Below, one piece after another: positions 3,971 through 31,365 of a DNA stretch of 34,932 bases. The first letter of the stretch is position 1, and each line of letters begins with the position of its first letter. The DNA comes from Candidatus Nomurabacteria bacterium (lineage in GTDB: Bacteria; Patescibacteriota; Minisyncoccia; Phycocordibacterales; UBA9973). Both the position numbers and the translations under genes were made by a program. The notes below the pieces were generated by a model. That model worked only from the letters and a program-made list of their open reading frames with translations. It made no database searches and was not told the origin of the DNA. The stretch covers positions 1 through 34,932 of the forward strand of contig JBBIUG010000002.1 of NCBI GenBank assembly GCA_037440325.1, in the 5' to 3' direction.

Positions 3971-4630
3971 ATGCGTTTTTTAAACACTATATTAGACATA
4001 TGTTTCCCTGCAAAATGTGTCTCGTGTAAAAAGTCCGGATCCGACTTATGTTTAGAATGCTTGAAAGAGGCTCGAGCAGCTGAACGCGAAAGCGCAAGGT
4101 GGATTTTCCCTCTATACGACTATCGAAACCCGATTATTAAAAAATCATTATGGTTGCTTAAATATAAGGGCAGAAAAGGACTAGCAAACGTTTTCGCAAA
4201 AATCGTCTACGAAAAAATTCTGGAAGAACTTTCGGAACTCAGCATAATGGAAAATTTTATTGATCCGATTTTAGTTCCTATTCCCCTCTCCTCTAAAAGA
4301 TACCGCGAACGTGGTTTCAATCAAGCTGAACTAATCTGCCGAGAAATAATAAAAATTACTCATTTACGCCATGGCGTAAATATGGAATTAGAAAAGAATG
4401 TCTTGATTAAACCAAAAGAAACAGAACATCAAGCGCTCATCCGAGAACGCAATGTAAGATTAAAAAATATTGTTGGCTCTTTCGCCGTAAAAAACAATGA
4501 AAGAATTGCGAATAGAAATATAATTTTGATAGACGACATCACCACGACTGGAGCTACCCTAAGCGAAGCAAAAAAGATTTTAAAACAATCCGGGGCACGG
4601 AAAGTAATTGCTTTTACTGTAGCTCATTAA
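3971..4630 (+). CDS. comF: ComF-family competence protein (phosphoribosyltransferase fold with N-terminal zinc finger)
   Basis: CFPAKCVSCKK...CLECL double CxxC motif and PRT motif IILIDDITTTGATL. Start set at ATG 3971; the upstream part of the 366-aa ORF is antisense to pilM. Confidence 0.85.
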   Translation: MRFLNTILDICFPAKCVSCKKSGSDLCLECLKEARAAERESARWIFPLYDYRNPIIKKSLWLLKYKGRKGLANVFAKIVYEKILEELSELSIMENFIDPILVPIPLSSKRYRERGFNQAELICREIIKITHLRHGVNMELEKNVLIKPKETEHQALIRERNVRLKNIVGSFAVKNNERIANRNIILIDDITTTGATLSEAKKILKQSGARKVIAFTVAH

Positions 4631-7098: not shown

Positions 7099-7188
7099 TG
7101 GCGGAGAGAGAGGGATTCGAACCCTCGGTCCTTTTTGGGGGACGACAGTTTAGTAAACTGTTGGTTTAAACCACTCACCCATCTCTCC
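7099..7188 (-). tRNA. Type-II (long variable arm) tRNA-Ser-like gene with anticodon ACU; CCA encoded
   Basis: Reverse complement folds as GGAGAGA-TG-GGT-GAGTGGTTTAA-ACC-A-ACAGT-TTACTAA-ACTGT-CGTCCCCCAAAAAGGACC-GAGGG-TTCGAAT-CCCTC-TCTCTCC-G-CCA. All stems are Watson-Crick and the discriminator is G73. Confidence 0.75.
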
Positions 7189-7386: not shown

Positions 7387-7475
7387 GGAGCCGTGTCAGA
7401 GTGGTCTAACGTACCTCTTTGCTAAAGAGGCAGGGGCTTCAAAACCCCTCGACGGTTCGAATCCGTCCGGCTCCG
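7387..7475 (+). tRNA. tRNA-Ser(GCU), type II
   Basis: Acceptor GGAGCCG/CGGCTCC, anticodon arm CCTCT-TTGCTAA-AGAGG, long variable arm AGGGG...CCCCT, T arm GACGG-TTCGAAT-CCGTC, G73. The D stem (TCA/CGT) pairs poorly in my fold. Confidence 0.8.
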
Positions 7476-7489
7476 CATTTTATTAAAAC

Positions 7490-8166: not shown

Positions 8167-10389
8167 ATGGAACTTCACGAAAAAATAGAAACAAAATTTC
8201 GCCTAGACATAAATCAGAAAAAAGCCCTGCACCGACTGAAAATTTTTTCGGTGGCAGACTTACTTTTTCATTTTCCCCTCCGGTATAGCGATATTAGTGA
8301 AGTCAAAAACATTTCAGAACTGGTTCCAGGGGATATGGCAACGGTTTACGGGAAAATCTCAAAATTAAAGACAAAGAAATCTTTTCACACAAAAGTTCCA
8401 ATGGCTGAGGGCGAAATTGAAGATTTGTCAGGGAAAATAAAAATCACCTGGTTCAATCAAGCATATTTGGCCAAGATGATAAAGAATGAGGAAAATGTAA
8501 AACTAACCGGGAAGGTCACCCAAGGAAAAAATGGTATTTATTTGGCCAACCCCGAGTTTGAAAAAATGCCGGATATGCCGATAGACAAGCACGACACTCT
8601 TTTTACGGGAGAAAATGCACCAAACACCGGTTTCTCGTATCCCATTTATGCCGAGACTCGTGGCATCACTTCAAAATGGTTTTATCATGCAATAGAAAAA
8701 ATATTTAAAGAACACACGTTGGATCGAATCGAAGATTACATTCCAGATGATATATTAAAAAAATACCACCTCCCCACCCTAAAGACAGCCCTGGTTTGGA
8801 TTCACAAACCAAAGAACAAATACGACGCAGCATCCGCACGCAAAAGATTCGCTTTTGAAGAAGTTTTTTGTATTCAACTTGAGCGTCAGCATGATAAATT
8901 TGAATATAGAAAAAATAAATCTTTTCAAATAAAAACCGACAAAAGGGTTGTGGAAGACTTTTTGAAACGTTTTCCATTTTCATTAACCAACTCACAAAAG
9001 AAATCAACTGAAACAATTTTGGAAGACATGGGAAAGAGTTTTCCGATGTCTAGACTGCTTGAAGGCGATGTCGGTTCCGGAAAGACAGCCGTGGCGGCCA
9101 CCGCCACTCACGTAGCCATCAATCAGCGACCAAACGGACAAAGTTTCGGTAATCTGCAAGTAGCATATATGGCGCCTACTGAGATTCTGGCGACTCAACA
9201 TTTTGAATCATTCATCCAATACTTCAAACACCTGCCGATAAATATCGGGCTCATTACCGGATCTGGTTGTCGTAAATTTCCTTCAAAAATAAACCCGGAT
9301 GGTTGGACCACTATTTCTCGTGCCCAACTTTTAAAATGGACAGCAAATGGAGAAATACCAATTTTAATCGGCACCCATGCACTTATCCAAAAAACTGTGA
9401 AGTTTAAAAATCTGGCCATGGTAATAATTGACGAGCAGCATCGTTTTGGCACAGCCCAGAGAAGAAAACTAGTCCGCAAAGATGGGGTCGCTCCGCACTT
9501 ACTCTCCATGACCGCCACCCCCATTCCCCGCACACTAGCTCTCACTATTTATGGAGACCTAGACCTATCTTTGCTTTTAGAAATGCCCGCCGGACGAAAA
9601 CAAATAATTACTGAAATAATTACTCCAAACAAGCGAGAAGAAACTTATGAAAAAATAAAAGAAGAATTAAAAAATGGTAGACAGCTTTATGTCATTTGTC
9701 CGAGAATATTTGAAGCCGAAGCGGAGACTGCCCAAGTTTTTGGTCCCCGAGGGTCCCACTCCAAAGGAGAAGGGCGCAGGGGGCAAAAATTTGGGCAGCT
9801 GGAGCTCAAGGCGGTCACAACAGAGGCAAAACGACTGAAAAAAGAAGTTTTCCCGGAGTACGAAATAGGTATTCTGCACAGTAAAATGAGCAAGGAAAAA
9901 AAAGAAAAAGTAATGCAAGATTTTACTGAAGGAAAAATAAATATTTTGTGCGCCACCTCTGTAGTGGAAGTCGGAGTGAACGTTCCGAACGCCACTGTAA
10001 TCATTATCGAGGGGGCCGAACGTTTCGGGCTCGCCCAGCTTCACCAACTTCGTGGACGCGTCATCAGAAGTAATCATCAAGCATATTGTTACATTTTTGC
10101 CGAAGCAAAAAGTGAAAAGACGATGGAGAGACTGAAGGCAATCAAGACTGCCAAAAATGGTTTTGAGTTGGCGGAGCTTGATCTAGCGCTTCGCGGACCA
10201 GGAGAATTGGGTGGTACCAAGCAATGGGGCATCACTGATCTAGGAATGGAAGCAATAAAAAATATAAAAATGGTTGAGGCAGCCAGAACAGAAGCAATTC
10301 GCCTGATTGAAGAAGATTCGGAACTAATAAAATATCCACTTCTTAAACAAAAAGTGAAACAAAAGACGTCTGAATTCCATTTCGAATAA
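8167..10389 (+). CDS. recG: ATP-dependent DNA helicase RecG
   Basis: Wedge/OB N-terminus, motif I GDVGSGKT, DEQHRFG, SMTATPIPRT, and QLHQLRGRVIR. It carries an extra segment of about 24 aa between the helicase lobes (see repeat 9728-9798). Confidence 0.9.
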   Translation: MELHEKIETKFRLDINQKKALHRLKIFSVADLLFHFPLRYSDISEVKNISELVPGDMATVYGKISKLKTKKSFHTKVPMAEGEIEDLSGKIKITWFNQAYLAKMIKNEENVKLTGKVTQGKNGIYLANPEFEKMPDMPIDKHDTLFTGENAPNTGFSYPIYAETRGITSKWFYHAIEKIFKEHTLDRIEDYIPDDILKKYHLPTLKTALVWIHKPKNKYDAASARKRFAFEEVFCIQLERQHDKFEYRKNKSFQIKTDKRVVEDFLKRFPFSLTNSQKKSTETILEDMGKSFPMSRLLEGDVGSGKTAVAATATHVAINQRPNGQSFGNLQVAYMAPTEILATQHFESFIQYFKHLPINIGLITGSGCRKFPSKINPDGWTTISRAQLLKWTANGEIPILIGTHALIQKTVKFKNLAMVIIDEQHRFGTAQRRKLVRKDGVAPHLLSMTATPIPRTLALTIYGDLDLSLLLEMPAGRKQIITEIITPNKREETYEKIKEELKNGRQLYVICPRIFEAEAETAQVFGPRGSHSKGEGRRGQKFGQLELKAVTTEAKRLKKEVFPEYEIGILHSKMSKEKKEKVMQDFTEGKINILCATSVVEVGVNVPNATVIIIEGAERFGLAQLHQLRGRVIRSNHQAYCYIFAEAKSEKTMERLKAIKTAKNGFELAELDLALRGPGELGGTKQWGITDLGMEAIKNIKMVEAARTEAIRLIEEDSELIKYPLLKQKVKQKTSEFHFE
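9728..9798. repeat. GC-cored hairpin element, copy A, in-frame inside recG
   Basis: A 15-bp stem CTGCCCAAGTTTTTG / CAAAAATTTGGGCAG encloses the core CCGAGGGTCCCACTCCAAAGGAGAAGGGCGCAGG (9747-9780). The core is 33/34 identical to 16600-16633. Confidence 0.8.
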
Positions 10390-13837: not shown

Positions 13838-14039
13838 GGGGCTTTATTATACACGAAATTATTTTTTTGAGTAAAGTGTTTTTTTGTTAATTTCGTGACA
13901 AAAAACGTTAAGCAACAGAAAAAAAATAAAACAAGACGGAAAGGAAAAATCTCAAGACAGGCAACAAGAATTTTCACAAAAAATTTTCTTTTTTTTGTAA
14001 AATTATCTCTTGACGAAGCAGATAGAATGATTTTTAATG

Positions 14040-14113
14040 TCCGTCCTCTTGGATTCGAACCAAGGACCCCAGAGGTATAAGCTCTGTGCTCTAACCAACT
14101 GAGCTAAGGACGG
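14040..14113 (-). tRNA. tRNA-Ile with anticodon UAU
   Basis: Reverse complement: CCGTCCT-TA-GCTC-AGTTGGTTA-GAGC-A-CAGAG-CTTATAC-CTCTG-GGGTC-CTTGG-TTCGAAT-CCAAG-AGGACGG-A. The cloverleaf is fully paired, the discriminator is A73, and CCA is not encoded. Confidence 0.85.
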
Positions 14114-16096: not shown

Positions 16097-16173
16097 CCCG
16101 TGATAATAGCACAAAAAAGATTAAATGTTAATGAGAAAACTTTATCGGAAAATAAAACTTTTTGCGAATCGAG

Positions 16174-16561
16174 TGGAGATGGGGGAAATCGAATCCCCGT
16201 GCAGAAGGTTATTGTAAAGAAGTCTACATACATAGCACGCTTTTTTTGTTTAGATTAAAAAATTCTTAAGCGAGCGAAATATTTTTTAATCGAGTCCCTT
16301 TGTTTCGGATATTGTCAGGACATTCAATAATCCTATCCCGATAATATTATGCCTTAATCCATATATCGGAAGTCTATGGACAAGACACCAACCTCAGGCT
16401 TACGCGAGGGCTGGAGCGAATGCGAACACATTACCGAAGTAAGGTGAGCGGATTGCTGAAGTTAATTTTGCAATTAACAATTGAACGAAGTTTAACGAGA
16501 TTACGTTCATACTCGGCATGCATCAATAACAATAGGCCAACTGTCTATGCCTTGCATCCCC
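16174..16561 (-). ncRNA. ssrA: tmRNA (SsrA), one-piece
   Basis: The 5' GGGGATG pairs with the 3' CATCTCC-A, including a G3:U pair. T arm is GGGGA-TTCGATT-TCCCC. An internal frame ends ...GCT CCA GCC CTC GCG TAA (tag ending APALA). It lies next to smpB. CCA is not encoded. Confidence 0.85.
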
Positions 16562-16571
16562 AAATTTGTTT

Positions 16572-16660
16572 AAGCGAAGTTTCCTAAAAATTTTTTAGTC
16601 CGAGGGTCCCGCTCCAAAGGAGAAGGGCGCAGGACAAAAAATTATTAGAAAACTTCGCTT
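16572..16660. repeat. GC-cored hairpin element, copy B (smpB-ssrA spacer)
   Basis: A stem of about 25 bp, AAGCGAAGTTTCCTAAAAATTTTTT / AAAAAATTATTAGAAAACTTCGCTT, encloses GTCCGAGGGTCCCGCTCCAAAGGAGAAGGGCGCAGGAC. Confidence 0.8.
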
Positions 16661-30105: not shown

Positions 30106-30291
30106 TTACCAGCTTGATTTACGAACGCCTGGAAGCATTCCTTCGTTTGCTAATTCTCTGAAACAAATACGACAAATACCGAAATCTCTCATGAAAGCGT
30201 TACCACGACCGCAGCGAAAACATCGGTTCTTCTGCCTGGTAGAAAACTTTGGTTTTTTCGCCGCTCGGGCTTTGACTGATGTTTTTGCCAT
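30106..30291 (-). CDS. rpsZ: 30S ribosomal protein S14, zinc-binding type Z (61 aa)
   Basis: CFRCGR...CRICFRE (CxxC-x-CxxC) in 61 aa. No recognisable SD upstream. Confidence 0.95.
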
Positions 30292-30316
30292 AAAAATAAT
30301 GTCGGGAGAGTTTTAC

Positions 30317-30384
30317 AATATCTCGTTTTTTTTCTTTTAGGGCTTATCCCAAAAGGAGAAAAACGGATTGATTAAAACGATATT
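30317..30384. repeat. Degenerate GC-cored hairpin element, copy D (rpsZ 5' leader)
   Basis: Arms AATATCTCGTTTT / AAAACGATATT share ATATCTCG with copy C. The core TAGGGCTTATCCCAAAAGGAGAAAAACGG retains the CCAAA(A)GGAGAA block. Confidence 0.5.
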
Positions 30385-30396
30385 CCCTTGCGTTTC

Positions 30397-30425
30397 ATAC
30401 TAGCAAATAATTACAAAAGAGTCAA
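30397..30425 (-). promoter_or_regulatory. Putative restart promoter for rpsZ-rpsH-... (TTGACT-17-TAGTAT)
   Basis: Read on the minus strand: -35 at 30425-30420 and -10 at 30402-30397. Confidence 0.45.
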
Positions 30426-30440
30426 ACATTGCTTATAATG

Positions 30441-30469
30441 TTGACAAAATCTATTTTTTCTGTTAATTT
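30441..30469 (+). promoter_or_regulatory. Putative promoter of the 75-aa ORF (TTGACA-17-TAATTT)
   Basis: TTGACA at 30441-30446 and TAATTT at 30464-30469. The two -35 boxes are back-to-back within the imperfect palindrome GTCAAACATTGCTTATAATGTTGAC. Confidence 0.45.
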
Positions 30470-30490
30470 ATAAGCGAAAGGAGGTTCCCC

Positions 30491-30718
30491 ATGAAAAGAT
30501 ACATCGCATTTGTGTTCACCTATCGCTTCGACGTGGAACACGGATGGAACAACGTACTTCGCAACAAAAGAACGGAAGAGGTCGCATCGTGGGACGTGAG
30601 ATGGCGCGCCAACGCTGCGGCCAAGAAAGAACTGCGGGAGCGGCAAAAACGAGGAGAAGGACGGCAAGAATCCCAGGTGGTAGACCTTCACACAGGAGAA
30701 ATGCATCAAGTCGGCTAG
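30491..30718 (+). CDS. Small (75 aa) GC-rich ORF of unknown function, antisense to the ribosomal operon
   Basis: AAGGAGG lies 7 nt upstream of the ATG. Codon choice is rich in C/G-ending codons, unlike the neighbours. The ORF is followed by strong terminators. No family recognised. Confidence 0.5.
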   Translation: MKRYIAFVFTYRFDVEHGWNNVLRNKRTEEVASWDVRWRANAAAKKELRERQKRGEGRQESQVVDLHTGEMHQVG

Positions 30719-30736
30719 TATCCACCATACAATCTT

Positions 30737-30768
30737 GGGCCCCCGCCGGCAAAAGCCGGCGGGGGCCC
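30737..30768. terminator. Perfect 14-bp GC palindrome GGGCCCCCGCCGGC-AAAA-GCCGGCGGGGGCCC
   Basis: Read directly from the sequence. No immediate U-tract on the + strand; an A-run follows. Confidence 0.55.
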
Positions 30769-30777
30769 AAAAACAAA

Positions 30778-30800
30778 ACACCCTTACGGGTGTTTCTTTG
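30778..30800. terminator. Bidirectional intrinsic terminator ACACCC-TTAC-GGGTGT with T-runs on both strands
   Basis: The + strand is followed by TTCTTTGTTT. The - strand is followed by TTTGTTTTT. It lies 17 nt downstream of the rplE stop. Confidence 0.65.
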
Positions 30801-30816
30801 TTTCATTTTTATTATT

Positions 30817-31365
30817 TTATTCCTTTTTAAATGGAACGCCGAGAATCTCAAAGAAGGCGGTGCCTTCTTTTTTATTTTTTGCTGTTGAAACTAAAGTAAT
30901 GGACAAACCGAAAACATCGCGGATATCTTCGTCAGCTGTCTCTGGGAAAATGGTGTGCTCTTTAATGCCGACAGTTAAGTTTCCAATGTCATCCACTGCT
31001 TTTCTATTAATACCGCGGAAGTCTTTTGTACGAGGAAGCGCAACGTTGATTAATTTTTCCAAAAAAGCATACATTCTTTTTCCGCGAAGAGTAACCACTA
31101 CCCCGACAGGATCTCCTTGGCGAATTTTGAAAGAAGAGATGGATTGCTTGGCGCCTCTTAGAGCCGCCTTCTGGCCAGAAATTTTAGCAATACGATCAGC
31201 GATGGCATCATTCTTGTTCTTGTCTTTCTTCATCGCTGTTCCAGTACCAACGTTGATTACGACTTTTTTTAGTTTTGGGGTAGCCATAACATTTTTAAAA
31301 TGAAAGGCGTCTTTCATTTTTGAAAATGCTTCTACTTCTTTTTCTTTTACGGTTAGGTGTTTCAT
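30817..31365 (-). CDS. rplE: 50S ribosomal protein L5
   Basis: VVINVGTG...RGKRMYAFLEKLINVALPRTKDFRG. Confidence 0.95.
   Translation of the reverse strand: MKHLTVKEKEVEAFSKMKDAFHFKNVMATPKLKKVVINVGTGTAMKKDKNKNDAIADRIAKISGQKAALRGAKQSISSFKIRQGDPVGVVVTLRGKRMYAFLEKLINVALPRTKDFRGINRKAVDDIGNLTVGIKEHTIFPETADEDIRDVFGLSITLVSTAKNKKEGTAFFEILGVPFKKE

Follow-up and report, generated by a model that had tools for sequence, protein, structure and literature searches.

The window analysed here is a complete NCBI contig of 34,932 nucleotides from Candidatus Nomurabacteria bacterium (JBBIUG010000002.1; ca. 40% GC), which carries an S10/spc ribosomal-protein cluster on the minus strand, and the element in question is a small GC-rich cassette encoding a 75-residue protein, located on the opposite strand between rplE and rpsZ. 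The cassette is probably a moron-like, horizontally acquired accessory gene of a phage-associated protein superfamily, placed in a pre-existing gap between a terminator and a promoter, and retained under selection. The spacer would comprise two layers: (i) a native layer found across the clade, with the rplE terminator, a strong rpsZ promoter, and a structured rpsZ leader of ca. 105 nt; and (ii) a foreign layer, an autonomous unit of ca. 345 bp with its own σ70-type promoter, a strong Shine-Dalgarno (SD) sequence, a gene of 75 codons, and a GC hairpin of high stability. This unit would be transcribed convergently with rplE and end at a shared bidirectional terminator, with no overlap with ribosomal-protein mRNA. 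Most parsimoniously, the acquisition would date to the last ancestor shared by the window organism and the nearest lineage known to date, and purifying selection would have kept the gene since then.

The open reading frame (ORF) extends from 30491 to 30718 on the plus strand (stop codon TAG at 30716-30718), antisense to rplE and rpsZ. A word-indexed protein search with its product returned the self-match only, and a full HMMER search of 1.84 billion representative proteins retrieved P0002 (75 residues, 54% identity, E = 4e-13), P0004, and P0005; P0003, a eukaryotic LRR/TIR-like repeat protein of 1,472 residues (E = 3e-6), was rejected as a spurious, repeat-inflated match. The gene encoding P0002 lies antisense between rplE and rpsZ/rpsH in six groundwater contigs of a sister species (L012-L017, from ENA and JGI), in the same orientation as in the window, and the two proteins share 51-54% identity. 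Among known lineages, that of L012 stands closest to the window organism, with 91.9% amino acid identity over RpsH, RplF, RplR, and RpsE, compared to at most 90.2% for the others. L023 was discarded as the closest relative: its RplE identity of 96.7% covers just 30 aligned residues, and the four complete proteins favor the L012 lineage. An earlier interpretation made from the letters of the window, hereafter the sequence-only reading, had proposed a synteny comparison of the spacer, and in that comparison the closest relative keeps an intact ORF at the same rplE-rpsZ site.

The spacers of the window and L012 are colinear, both comprising the rpsZ leader, the rpsZ promoter, the TTGACA promoter, the SD, the ORF, the GC hairpin, and the bidirectional terminator. 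The bidirectional terminator is nearly identical in L012 and the SD is kept as AAAGGGGG, whereas the L012 GC hairpin has a stem of 12 bp that includes a single G-T pair, with another loop, and neither the sequence nor the length of the promoter-side junction is shared. Within the ORF, the indels that separate both lineages are multiples of three throughout, and 24 of the 38 identical residues are encoded by different codons. The proportion of nonsynonymous differences (pN, 0.31) is well below the saturated proportion of synonymous differences (pS, 0.77; Nei-Gojobori), which indicates a fast-evolving protein under purifying selection; the neighboring genes show dN/dS values of 0.03-0.06 and the flanking genes pS values of 0.52-0.70, with secY and rpsH at 0.67-0.70. 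The same-site orthologue, the in-frame indels, the synonymous codon changes, and a confidently predicted fold together indicate that the 75-residue ORF is a real gene, and the sequence-only prediction of a genuine protein product is borne out by the homologues, the indel pattern, and the pN/pS relation. As a separate observation, L012 contains at 4208-4327 an extra rpsZ-rpsH spacer of ca. 120 nt with CTGAT-rich repeats, compared with a distance of 5 nt between rpsZ and rpsH in the window.

Direct scans of the Pfam, PHROG, NCBIfam, and PADLOC libraries disclosed no significant match to the window protein, the DUF2188 match being weak and non-significant (E = 0.058). The sequence-only reading had recognized no family for the protein, which agrees with these empty direct scans; nevertheless, the protein is not a true orphan, since profiles link it to a phage-associated superfamily. 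Iterated profile searches add P0006-P0021, bringing the family to more than 20 members, several of them previously annotated as PF26894. With the family alignment, a scan of genome contigs gave no match and a scan of metagenome contigs recovered just the already known JGI contig. Family members match phrog_1411, phrog_17649, and phrog_4811, all annotated as of unknown function, with E-values of 3.9e-16 for P0017, 1.2e-7 for P0010, and 1.5e-5 for P0011, the last from a Patescibacteria metagenome-assembled genome; the intermediates P0010, P0011, and P0012 match phrog_1411 at 1e-7 to 1e-4. The profile-profile comparison by hhalign of the window subfamily (A2) with seven PF26894-annotated proteins (A7) reached a probability of 98.6% (E = 9.6e-16, 56 aligned columns), a value that points to the window protein as a divergent, fast-evolving member of the phage-associated PF26894/PHROG 1411 superfamily.

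Tblastn searches with P0017 located relatives in Burkholderia phages Bcep1 (gp64) and BcepNY3 (gp63), in RcXuper, and in Pseudomonas and Staphylococcus phages, encoded in early or replication regions; the Bcep1 gene lies between a helix-turn-helix protein and DNA polymerase I, and the Staphylococcus phage gene within an array of small hypothetical genes. The alignment of 21 sequences reveals R3, F7, G18, W19, A40, T68, and G69 as invariant, and K2, S33, D35, D65, and L66 as nearly invariant, all of them present in the window protein, which also carries the motif set KRYxxF, G-W, S-[FW]-D, and xVDLHTGx. The PHROG 1411/17649/4811 and PF26894 proteins, such as Bcep1 gp64, share the same motif order (KRY-x-x-F, GGW, S[FW]D[TS]xEEA, and [IV][IV]DLHTGE) and a similar size of 50-100 residues. 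In contrast, the window subfamily displays an insert of 8-16 residues after the GW pair and a longer central helix, and the window protein contains HGW, and WDVRWRA in place of FDTxEEA; in addition, the superfamily is otherwise known mainly from early or accessory regions of phages, and the window member is chromosomal, in CPR-type (Candidate Phyla Radiation) genomes. A side observation concerns P0016 (137 residues, from a 524-nt ENA contig), in which 50 family-like N-terminal residues are followed by an RNase H domain (PF00075, E = 1.4e-29), a junction that may represent either a real fusion or a chimeric short contig.

The AlphaFold2 model calculated with a 7-sequence alignment shows a compact fold (pLDDT 87.4, pTM 0.76), comprising a β-strand (residues 4-10), two α-helices (15-21 and 37-53), and two further β-strands (59-65 and 71-74); the single-sequence model is poor (pLDDT 61). 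The product is predicted to be a small, soluble, single-domain cytoplasmic α/β protein. Foldseek disclosed weak matches to small uncharacterized phage proteins in BFVD (best E = 0.02, TM 0.66) and nothing in the PDB (best E = 2), and a profile search of PDB sequences found no solved structure. CPR bacteria are thought to be episymbionts, and the sequence-only reading had suggested that the product could be a secreted or host-directed peptide, a proposal with which the moderately hydrophobic N-terminus (MKRYIAFVFTYRF) and expression signals atypical for the genome would agree. That segment, however, corresponds to the first β-strand (residues 4-10) of the confidently predicted compact fold; its KRYIxF motif is invariant or nearly so across the family, phage-encoded relatives included; and the protein displays neither a cleavage-site-like motif nor a transmembrane segment, making a secreted product highly improbable. 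With low confidence, the protein may bind and modulate a cellular or phage macromolecule, in the manner of other small accessory proteins of phages, for instance in phage-host conflict.

The cassette is flanked by rplE (uL5, 30817-31365, minus strand), assigned from the ORF list and from homologues with Pfam Ribosomal_L5, which ends the upstream transcription unit, and by rpsZ (uS14, the Zn-ribbon form of 61 residues with four Cys, 30106-30291, minus strand), assigned from the ORF list and from Ribosomal_S14 matches on identical proteins, which opens the downstream unit; 525 nt separate both genes. The self-contained antisense unit proposed by the sequence-only reading was recovered in full, with every feature at or within a few bases of its predicted position. 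The SD AAGGAGG occupies 30478-30484 on the plus strand, as proposed, although the distance to the ATG at 30491 is 6 nt rather than 7. Upstream, the putative promoter TTGACA-17-TAATTT (−35 at 30441-30446, −10 at 30464-30469, plus strand) occurs at the proposed site with a perfect −35 hexamer, its −10 hexamer being weak. Downstream, 18 nt past the stop codon, the GC palindrome is present exactly as described: a perfect 14-bp all-G/C stem (30737-30750/30755-30768) closing an AAAA loop, without a T-run of its own, which may stabilize the transcript or block read-through. It is followed by the predicted bidirectional terminator-like hairpin AAACACCC-TTAC-GGGTGTTT (30775-30796), detected in a two-strand terminator scan, with T-runs on either strand, which would terminate the rplE and the ORF transcripts alike. 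The predicted minus-strand promoter TTGACT-17-TAGTAT (30425-30397) was also listed by the promoter scan, back-to-back with the cassette promoter, the two −35 boxes being 15 nt apart. By comparison with 16 short cargo-free spacers and from the extent of the GC island, the foreign insert (promoter, SD, ORF, and GC hairpin) would span ca. 30427-30770, ca. 345 bp. The predicted unit begins 15 nt beyond the rpsZ −35 box and is separated from rplE by two hairpins, so that no overlap with ribosomal-protein mRNA is expected.

The abrupt compositional switch at the borders of the insert could also stem from a chimeric assembly, or the GC-rich stretch could be a structured RNA without coding function, and the independent Logan contig L011 (SRR11582171) ends inside the ORF at ca. 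30669. Nevertheless, before that point L011 matches the window at 100% identity from rpsH through the left junction, where AT-rich gives way to GC-rich sequence, up to and including the first 179 nt of the ORF, and the cassette is assembled in the six contigs of the sister species from ENA and JGI; because of both observations the left junction is no mis-assembly. Besides this, the conservation at the protein level, the existence of more than 20 homologues, and the lack of an Rfam family match leave the chimera or RNA explanation scarcely credible.

The composition of the cassette is clearly distinct from that of its surroundings, with a GC content of 0.55-0.57 over 30500-30800 compared to ca. 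0.32-0.43 around it, and the foreign character of the ORF claimed by the sequence-only reading is supported by its GC content at third codon positions (GC3) of 0.58, against 0.28-0.44 for all 42 other genes of the 43 counted in the window. A census of these 43 genes identified AAGGAGG as the sole strong SD, a weak AGGA being found within 20 nt of the start in just 2 of the other 42. The sequence-only reading had singled out rpsZ as lacking an SD, an accurate observation that describes the rule rather than an exception: judged from the 43 gene starts of the window, the genome is essentially SD-less. This near absence agrees with published work, according to which about half of the Parcubacteria 16S rRNAs lack the anti-SD motif (PMC9297842). 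The outlying GC3 and the unique strong SD argue for a foreign origin, and fit a cassette acquired horizontally from a donor that would be GC-richer and SD-using. The L012 orthologue is GC-rich too (0.50 versus 0.36 in the flanks; GC3 0.51). Other family members reside in contigs with an overall GC content of 41-53%, above the 40% of the window, where the family ORF is not consistently GC-richer than its surroundings. Searches with the cassette DNA against phages and plasmids gave no meaningful similarity, the one match covering 28 nt of a Salmonella record (E = 9e-3), and a scan of viral contigs returned no match.

The two lineages might also have acquired related cassettes independently at the same site. 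Consistent with this, (i) the proteins are 51-54% identical compared to ca. 92% for the neighboring ribosomal proteins; (ii) the pS of the ORF, 0.77, lies at or above that of every flanking gene; (iii) GC3 is elevated in both lineages; and (iv) at the promoter-side junction the two diverge in both sequence and length. On the other hand, the window and L012 lineages are mutually the closest known relatives, they share the insertion site and orientation, they have a colinear architecture and an almost unchanged junction on the terminator side, and the pS values of secY and rpsH (0.67-0.70) are similar to that of the ORF. Taken together, two separate acquisitions are unlikely, and a single acquisition in the common ancestor is preferred.

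A probe with RpsZ retrieved 80 species-representative genomes (L022-L101), labeled as Nomurabacteria, Paceibacterota, or Patescibacteria, with some records labeled as Saccharibacteria, in which the length of the rplE-rpsZ spacer varies between ca. 145 and more than 2,900 nt. Where cargo is absent, the stop codon of rplE is followed directly, or in some species after a terminator, by TTGACT-17-TAGTAT, a leader of ca. 110 nt, and the rpsZ ATG; many relatives display cargo-free spacers of 145-250 nt, with the flanking genes adjacent and no insert between them. An rplE terminator analogous to that of the window occurs in some cargo-free relatives (L024, L046, and L044) and not in others (L059 and L063). 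Among 86 distinct related leaders, 69 have a promoter-like site; the hexamer TTGACT occurs in 48 and TAGTAT in 44. The sequence-only reading held that the cassette breaks a contiguous operon and that the minus-strand promoter restarts rpsZ; this proposal does not survive the comparison, because most of the 80 species, cargo-bearing and cargo-free alike, show the break, the promoter, and the leader. The comparison indicates that the rplE|rpsZ split is native across Nomurabacteria and related Paceibacteria, and was not caused by the cassette.

Spacers longer than 350 nt contain at least 77 mutually unrelated ORF clusters. According to Pfam, the cargo includes type IV pilin-like proteins in 11 spacer loci, an aspartyl protease, a MazE and PemK pair (L025:2233-2828), and RVT_1 plus bAvd (L023:291-2793); together with a 202-residue target and a template repeat (TR)-like repeat, the L023 cargo looks like a complete diversity-generating retroelement (DGR). 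A member of the cassette family was found in none of the 80 other spc loci. The rplE|rpsZ gap is, on this comparative evidence, a clade-wide insertion hot spot, a landing pad for foreign genes. It resembles genomic-island hot spots, such as islands adjacent to tRNA and tmRNA genes and integron-like sites, in that a single conserved intergenic site receives variable and unrelated cargo, including DGR and MazEF. In contrast to these, the site belongs to the spc operon of ribosomal-protein genes, where a terminator and a promoter border it, and neither an integrase nor an att repeat nor integron features were seen in the window.

The presence of the MazE/PemK pair (L025) and the DGR (L023) at this hot spot in other species, together with the foreign and phage-related nature of the gene, might be taken in favor of a selfish addiction or toxin-antitoxin-type module, as the sequence-only reading had suggested, or of an anti-phage defense gene. 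However, the cassette gene stands alone and lacks a partner ORF, as no ORF that overlaps it in another frame shows a family match; PADLOC assigned no family to the seven members tested, and no toxin-antitoxin or defense profile matched; the protein is neither hydrophobic nor toxin-like; and the sole two-copy locus of the family contains tandem paralogues instead of a toxin/antitoxin pair. An addiction or defense module is, therefore, distinctly improbable. A parallel for the preferred interpretation, an acquired accessory gene of a phage-associated superfamily, is provided by phage ‘morons’, which according to Hendrix and colleagues are reportedly autonomous promoter-gene-terminator modules located between two otherwise adjacent genes. 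The cassette likewise contains a single small gene of distinct composition, the flanking genes are adjacent in relatives without the insert, and the family is phage-associated; its sequence suggests a putative σ70-type promoter of its own upstream and terminator-like hairpins downstream. It differs from phage morons by its location in a bacterial ribosomal-protein operon rather than in a phage or prophage, with ribosomal-protein genes flanking it for more than 6 kb on each side and no phage genes seen in the window, by its orientation against the flanking genes, and by expression signals that are known from sequence.

The native layer includes a structured 5′ leader of the rpsZ-rpsH-rplF... 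unit (30292-30396, minus strand), identified by folding, covariation, and a covariance model, with the core hairpin at 30316-30371. The leader folds as a long irregular hairpin (minimum free energy −24.9 kcal/mol, z = −2.5). In an 18-pair structure compared across 50 species, 94.9% of the cells are paired, compared to 81% in shuffles and 36-60% in slid controls, and 13 of the 18 pairs show compensatory changes on both sides; none of 500 shuffles reached the observed values. The internal loop (CUC/AAA), the closing AUC/GAU pairs, and a bulged A vary little, if at all. The covariance model scores 62.7 bits at 30316-30371 on the minus strand, with no other copy in the window, and detects the leader at 33 held-out spc loci. 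The sequence-only reading had described this element as copy D of a repeated hairpin, a description replaced here by that of a clade-conserved structured leader; a repeat search found no further copies of leader or cassette within the window. Rfam searches, at gathering thresholds over the whole window and with permissive settings over 30200-30900, returned chance-level matches only, and no S14 or CPR ribosomal-protein leader is described in PMC7247131 (Eckert & Weinberg 2020). The leader is thus a good candidate for a new ribosomal-protein autoregulatory leader of Paceibacteria, through which S8 or S14 might exert feedback. As in known ribosomal-protein leaders, among them the S8-binding site in the spc operon of E. 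coli and the r-leaders of Eckert & Weinberg 2020 (PMC7247131), a conserved covarying hairpin contains an invariant internal loop, and it is located directly 5′ of the first gene of a ribosomal-protein unit that includes rpsH (S8). Unlike them, the rpsZ leader matches no Rfam family, and binding of a ribosomal protein to it would be a prediction from its structure and position; no rRNA lies within the window.

The sequence-only reading had also raised a regulator that exploits or controls ribosomal-operon transcription. In such a scheme the cassette would be dedicated to regulating this operon, and would control rplE termination or expression of the rpsZ operon by convergent or divergent transcription or through its protein. 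The cassette and rpsZ promoters are back-to-back, with 15 nt between the −35 boxes, an arrangement kept in the sister species, and the leader holds an invariant UCUCCUU that is complementary to the cassette SD. Nevertheless, any SD is complementary to such a CU-rich stretch; promoter, leader, and operon split occur in dozens of species without the cassette, and 0 of 80 other spc loci contain a family member; relatives elsewhere adjoin groES, rpoD, atpB, RNase Y, or tRNA-Gly; and the two terminator-like hairpins between the ORF and rplE make antisense overlap unexpected. A dedicated regulator is consequently very unlikely, and an action of the protein on the ribosomal operon is not apparent.

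Beyond the spc operon, the family occupies diverse genomic homes. At the five loci for which both neighbors are known, the gene stands alone on the strand opposite to both co-directional flanking genes: (i) rplE|rpsZ, in the window and the sister species; (ii) groES|Wzy_C; (iii) HU|RNase Y, with two tandem paralogues and with a tRNA-Gly and a serine recombinase ca. 1 kb away; (iv) a locus adjoining rpoD; and (v) a locus adjoining atpB. In addition, the L104 member is convergent with def, and the L018 member starts 70 nt past a tRNA-Gly. A TTGACA hexamer with a −10-like hexamer, an SD, and a terminator hairpin are readable at L012, L018, L020, L021, and L103, and not clearly in L104; the SDs of L018, L020, L021, and L103 are strong. 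The arrangement of consensus-like promoter and terminator elements around a single gene is thus recurrent at homologous loci, with the weak −10 in the window. As an observation in its own right, a large serine recombinase of 550 residues in L020 (920-4728) ends on tRNA-Gly(GCC), after several unknown ORFs, which looks like an integrated element, ca. 1 kb away from the two tandem family members. The lone opposite-strand gene at five loci, together with the TTGACA promoter, the strong SD, and the hairpin terminator at most readable loci, could suggest a broader scheme, in which the family is a new kind of micro-cassette that expresses itself, needs no recombinase, and spreads among bacteria with small genomes (CPR-type). 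Its unique SD would provide privileged or conditional translation in an essentially SD-less genome, and its product might act on the adjacent expression machinery; this speculative scheme is considered quite unlikely.

Several observations weigh against an accessory gene of a phage-associated family, acquired once and retained under selection. First, the protein is tied to the superfamily transitively, by way of profiles, and not directly: the window protein (P0001) has no PHROG match at E ≤ 1 and no Pfam match, the latter in a copy that was searched without the PF26894 model, and neither Foldseek against the PDB nor profiles against PDB sequences disclosed a solved structure or an annotated relative. 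Second, the cassette −10 hexamer TAATTT agrees with the consensus at just three of six positions, so that the promoter scanner omitted it, proposing instead ATTACA-18-TATAAT (30410-30439) as the plus-strand candidate. Third, no integrase accompanies the insert, and flanking direct repeats or a target-site duplication were not seen by eye at ca. 30427 and 30770. Finally, GC3 is high in both lineages (0.58 and 0.51) despite saturated synonymous sites; such lasting elevation is unexpected after an ancient single acquisition followed by neutral amelioration, and would call for selection on GC or for two independent acquisitions.

Elsewhere in the window, a 62-nt direct repeat with 77% identity occurs at 9719-9780, inside a 740-residue ORF (8167-10389), and at 16572-16633, immediately upstream of the tmRNA gene (16171-16561, minus strand), where it forms a 25-nt inverted repeat with 16636-16660. 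ARAGORN predicts a tRNA-Ile with anticodon UAU (14039-14113, minus strand), rare in bacteria, which would decode AUA without lysidine, and two divergent tRNA-Ser genes (7099-7188, minus strand, and 7387-7476, plus strand), one of them with the unusual anticodon ACU.

Taken by itself, the cassette has a modest direct significance for biology, and greater novelty attaches to two by-products of its analysis, namely the hot spot and the native leader. The spc operon, ultra-conserved elsewhere, appears permanently split at rplE|rpsZ in Nomurabacteria and related Paceibacteria, the gap serving as a landing pad for foreign genes, and the covarying rpsZ-rpsH leader without an Rfam match is perhaps the more useful lead for RNA biologists. 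Within this setting, the cassette would represent a clean, datable example of a small gene of a phage family under selection in an SD-less CPR genome, and may provide a natural test case for the expression of SD-bearing foreign genes in SD-less hosts.

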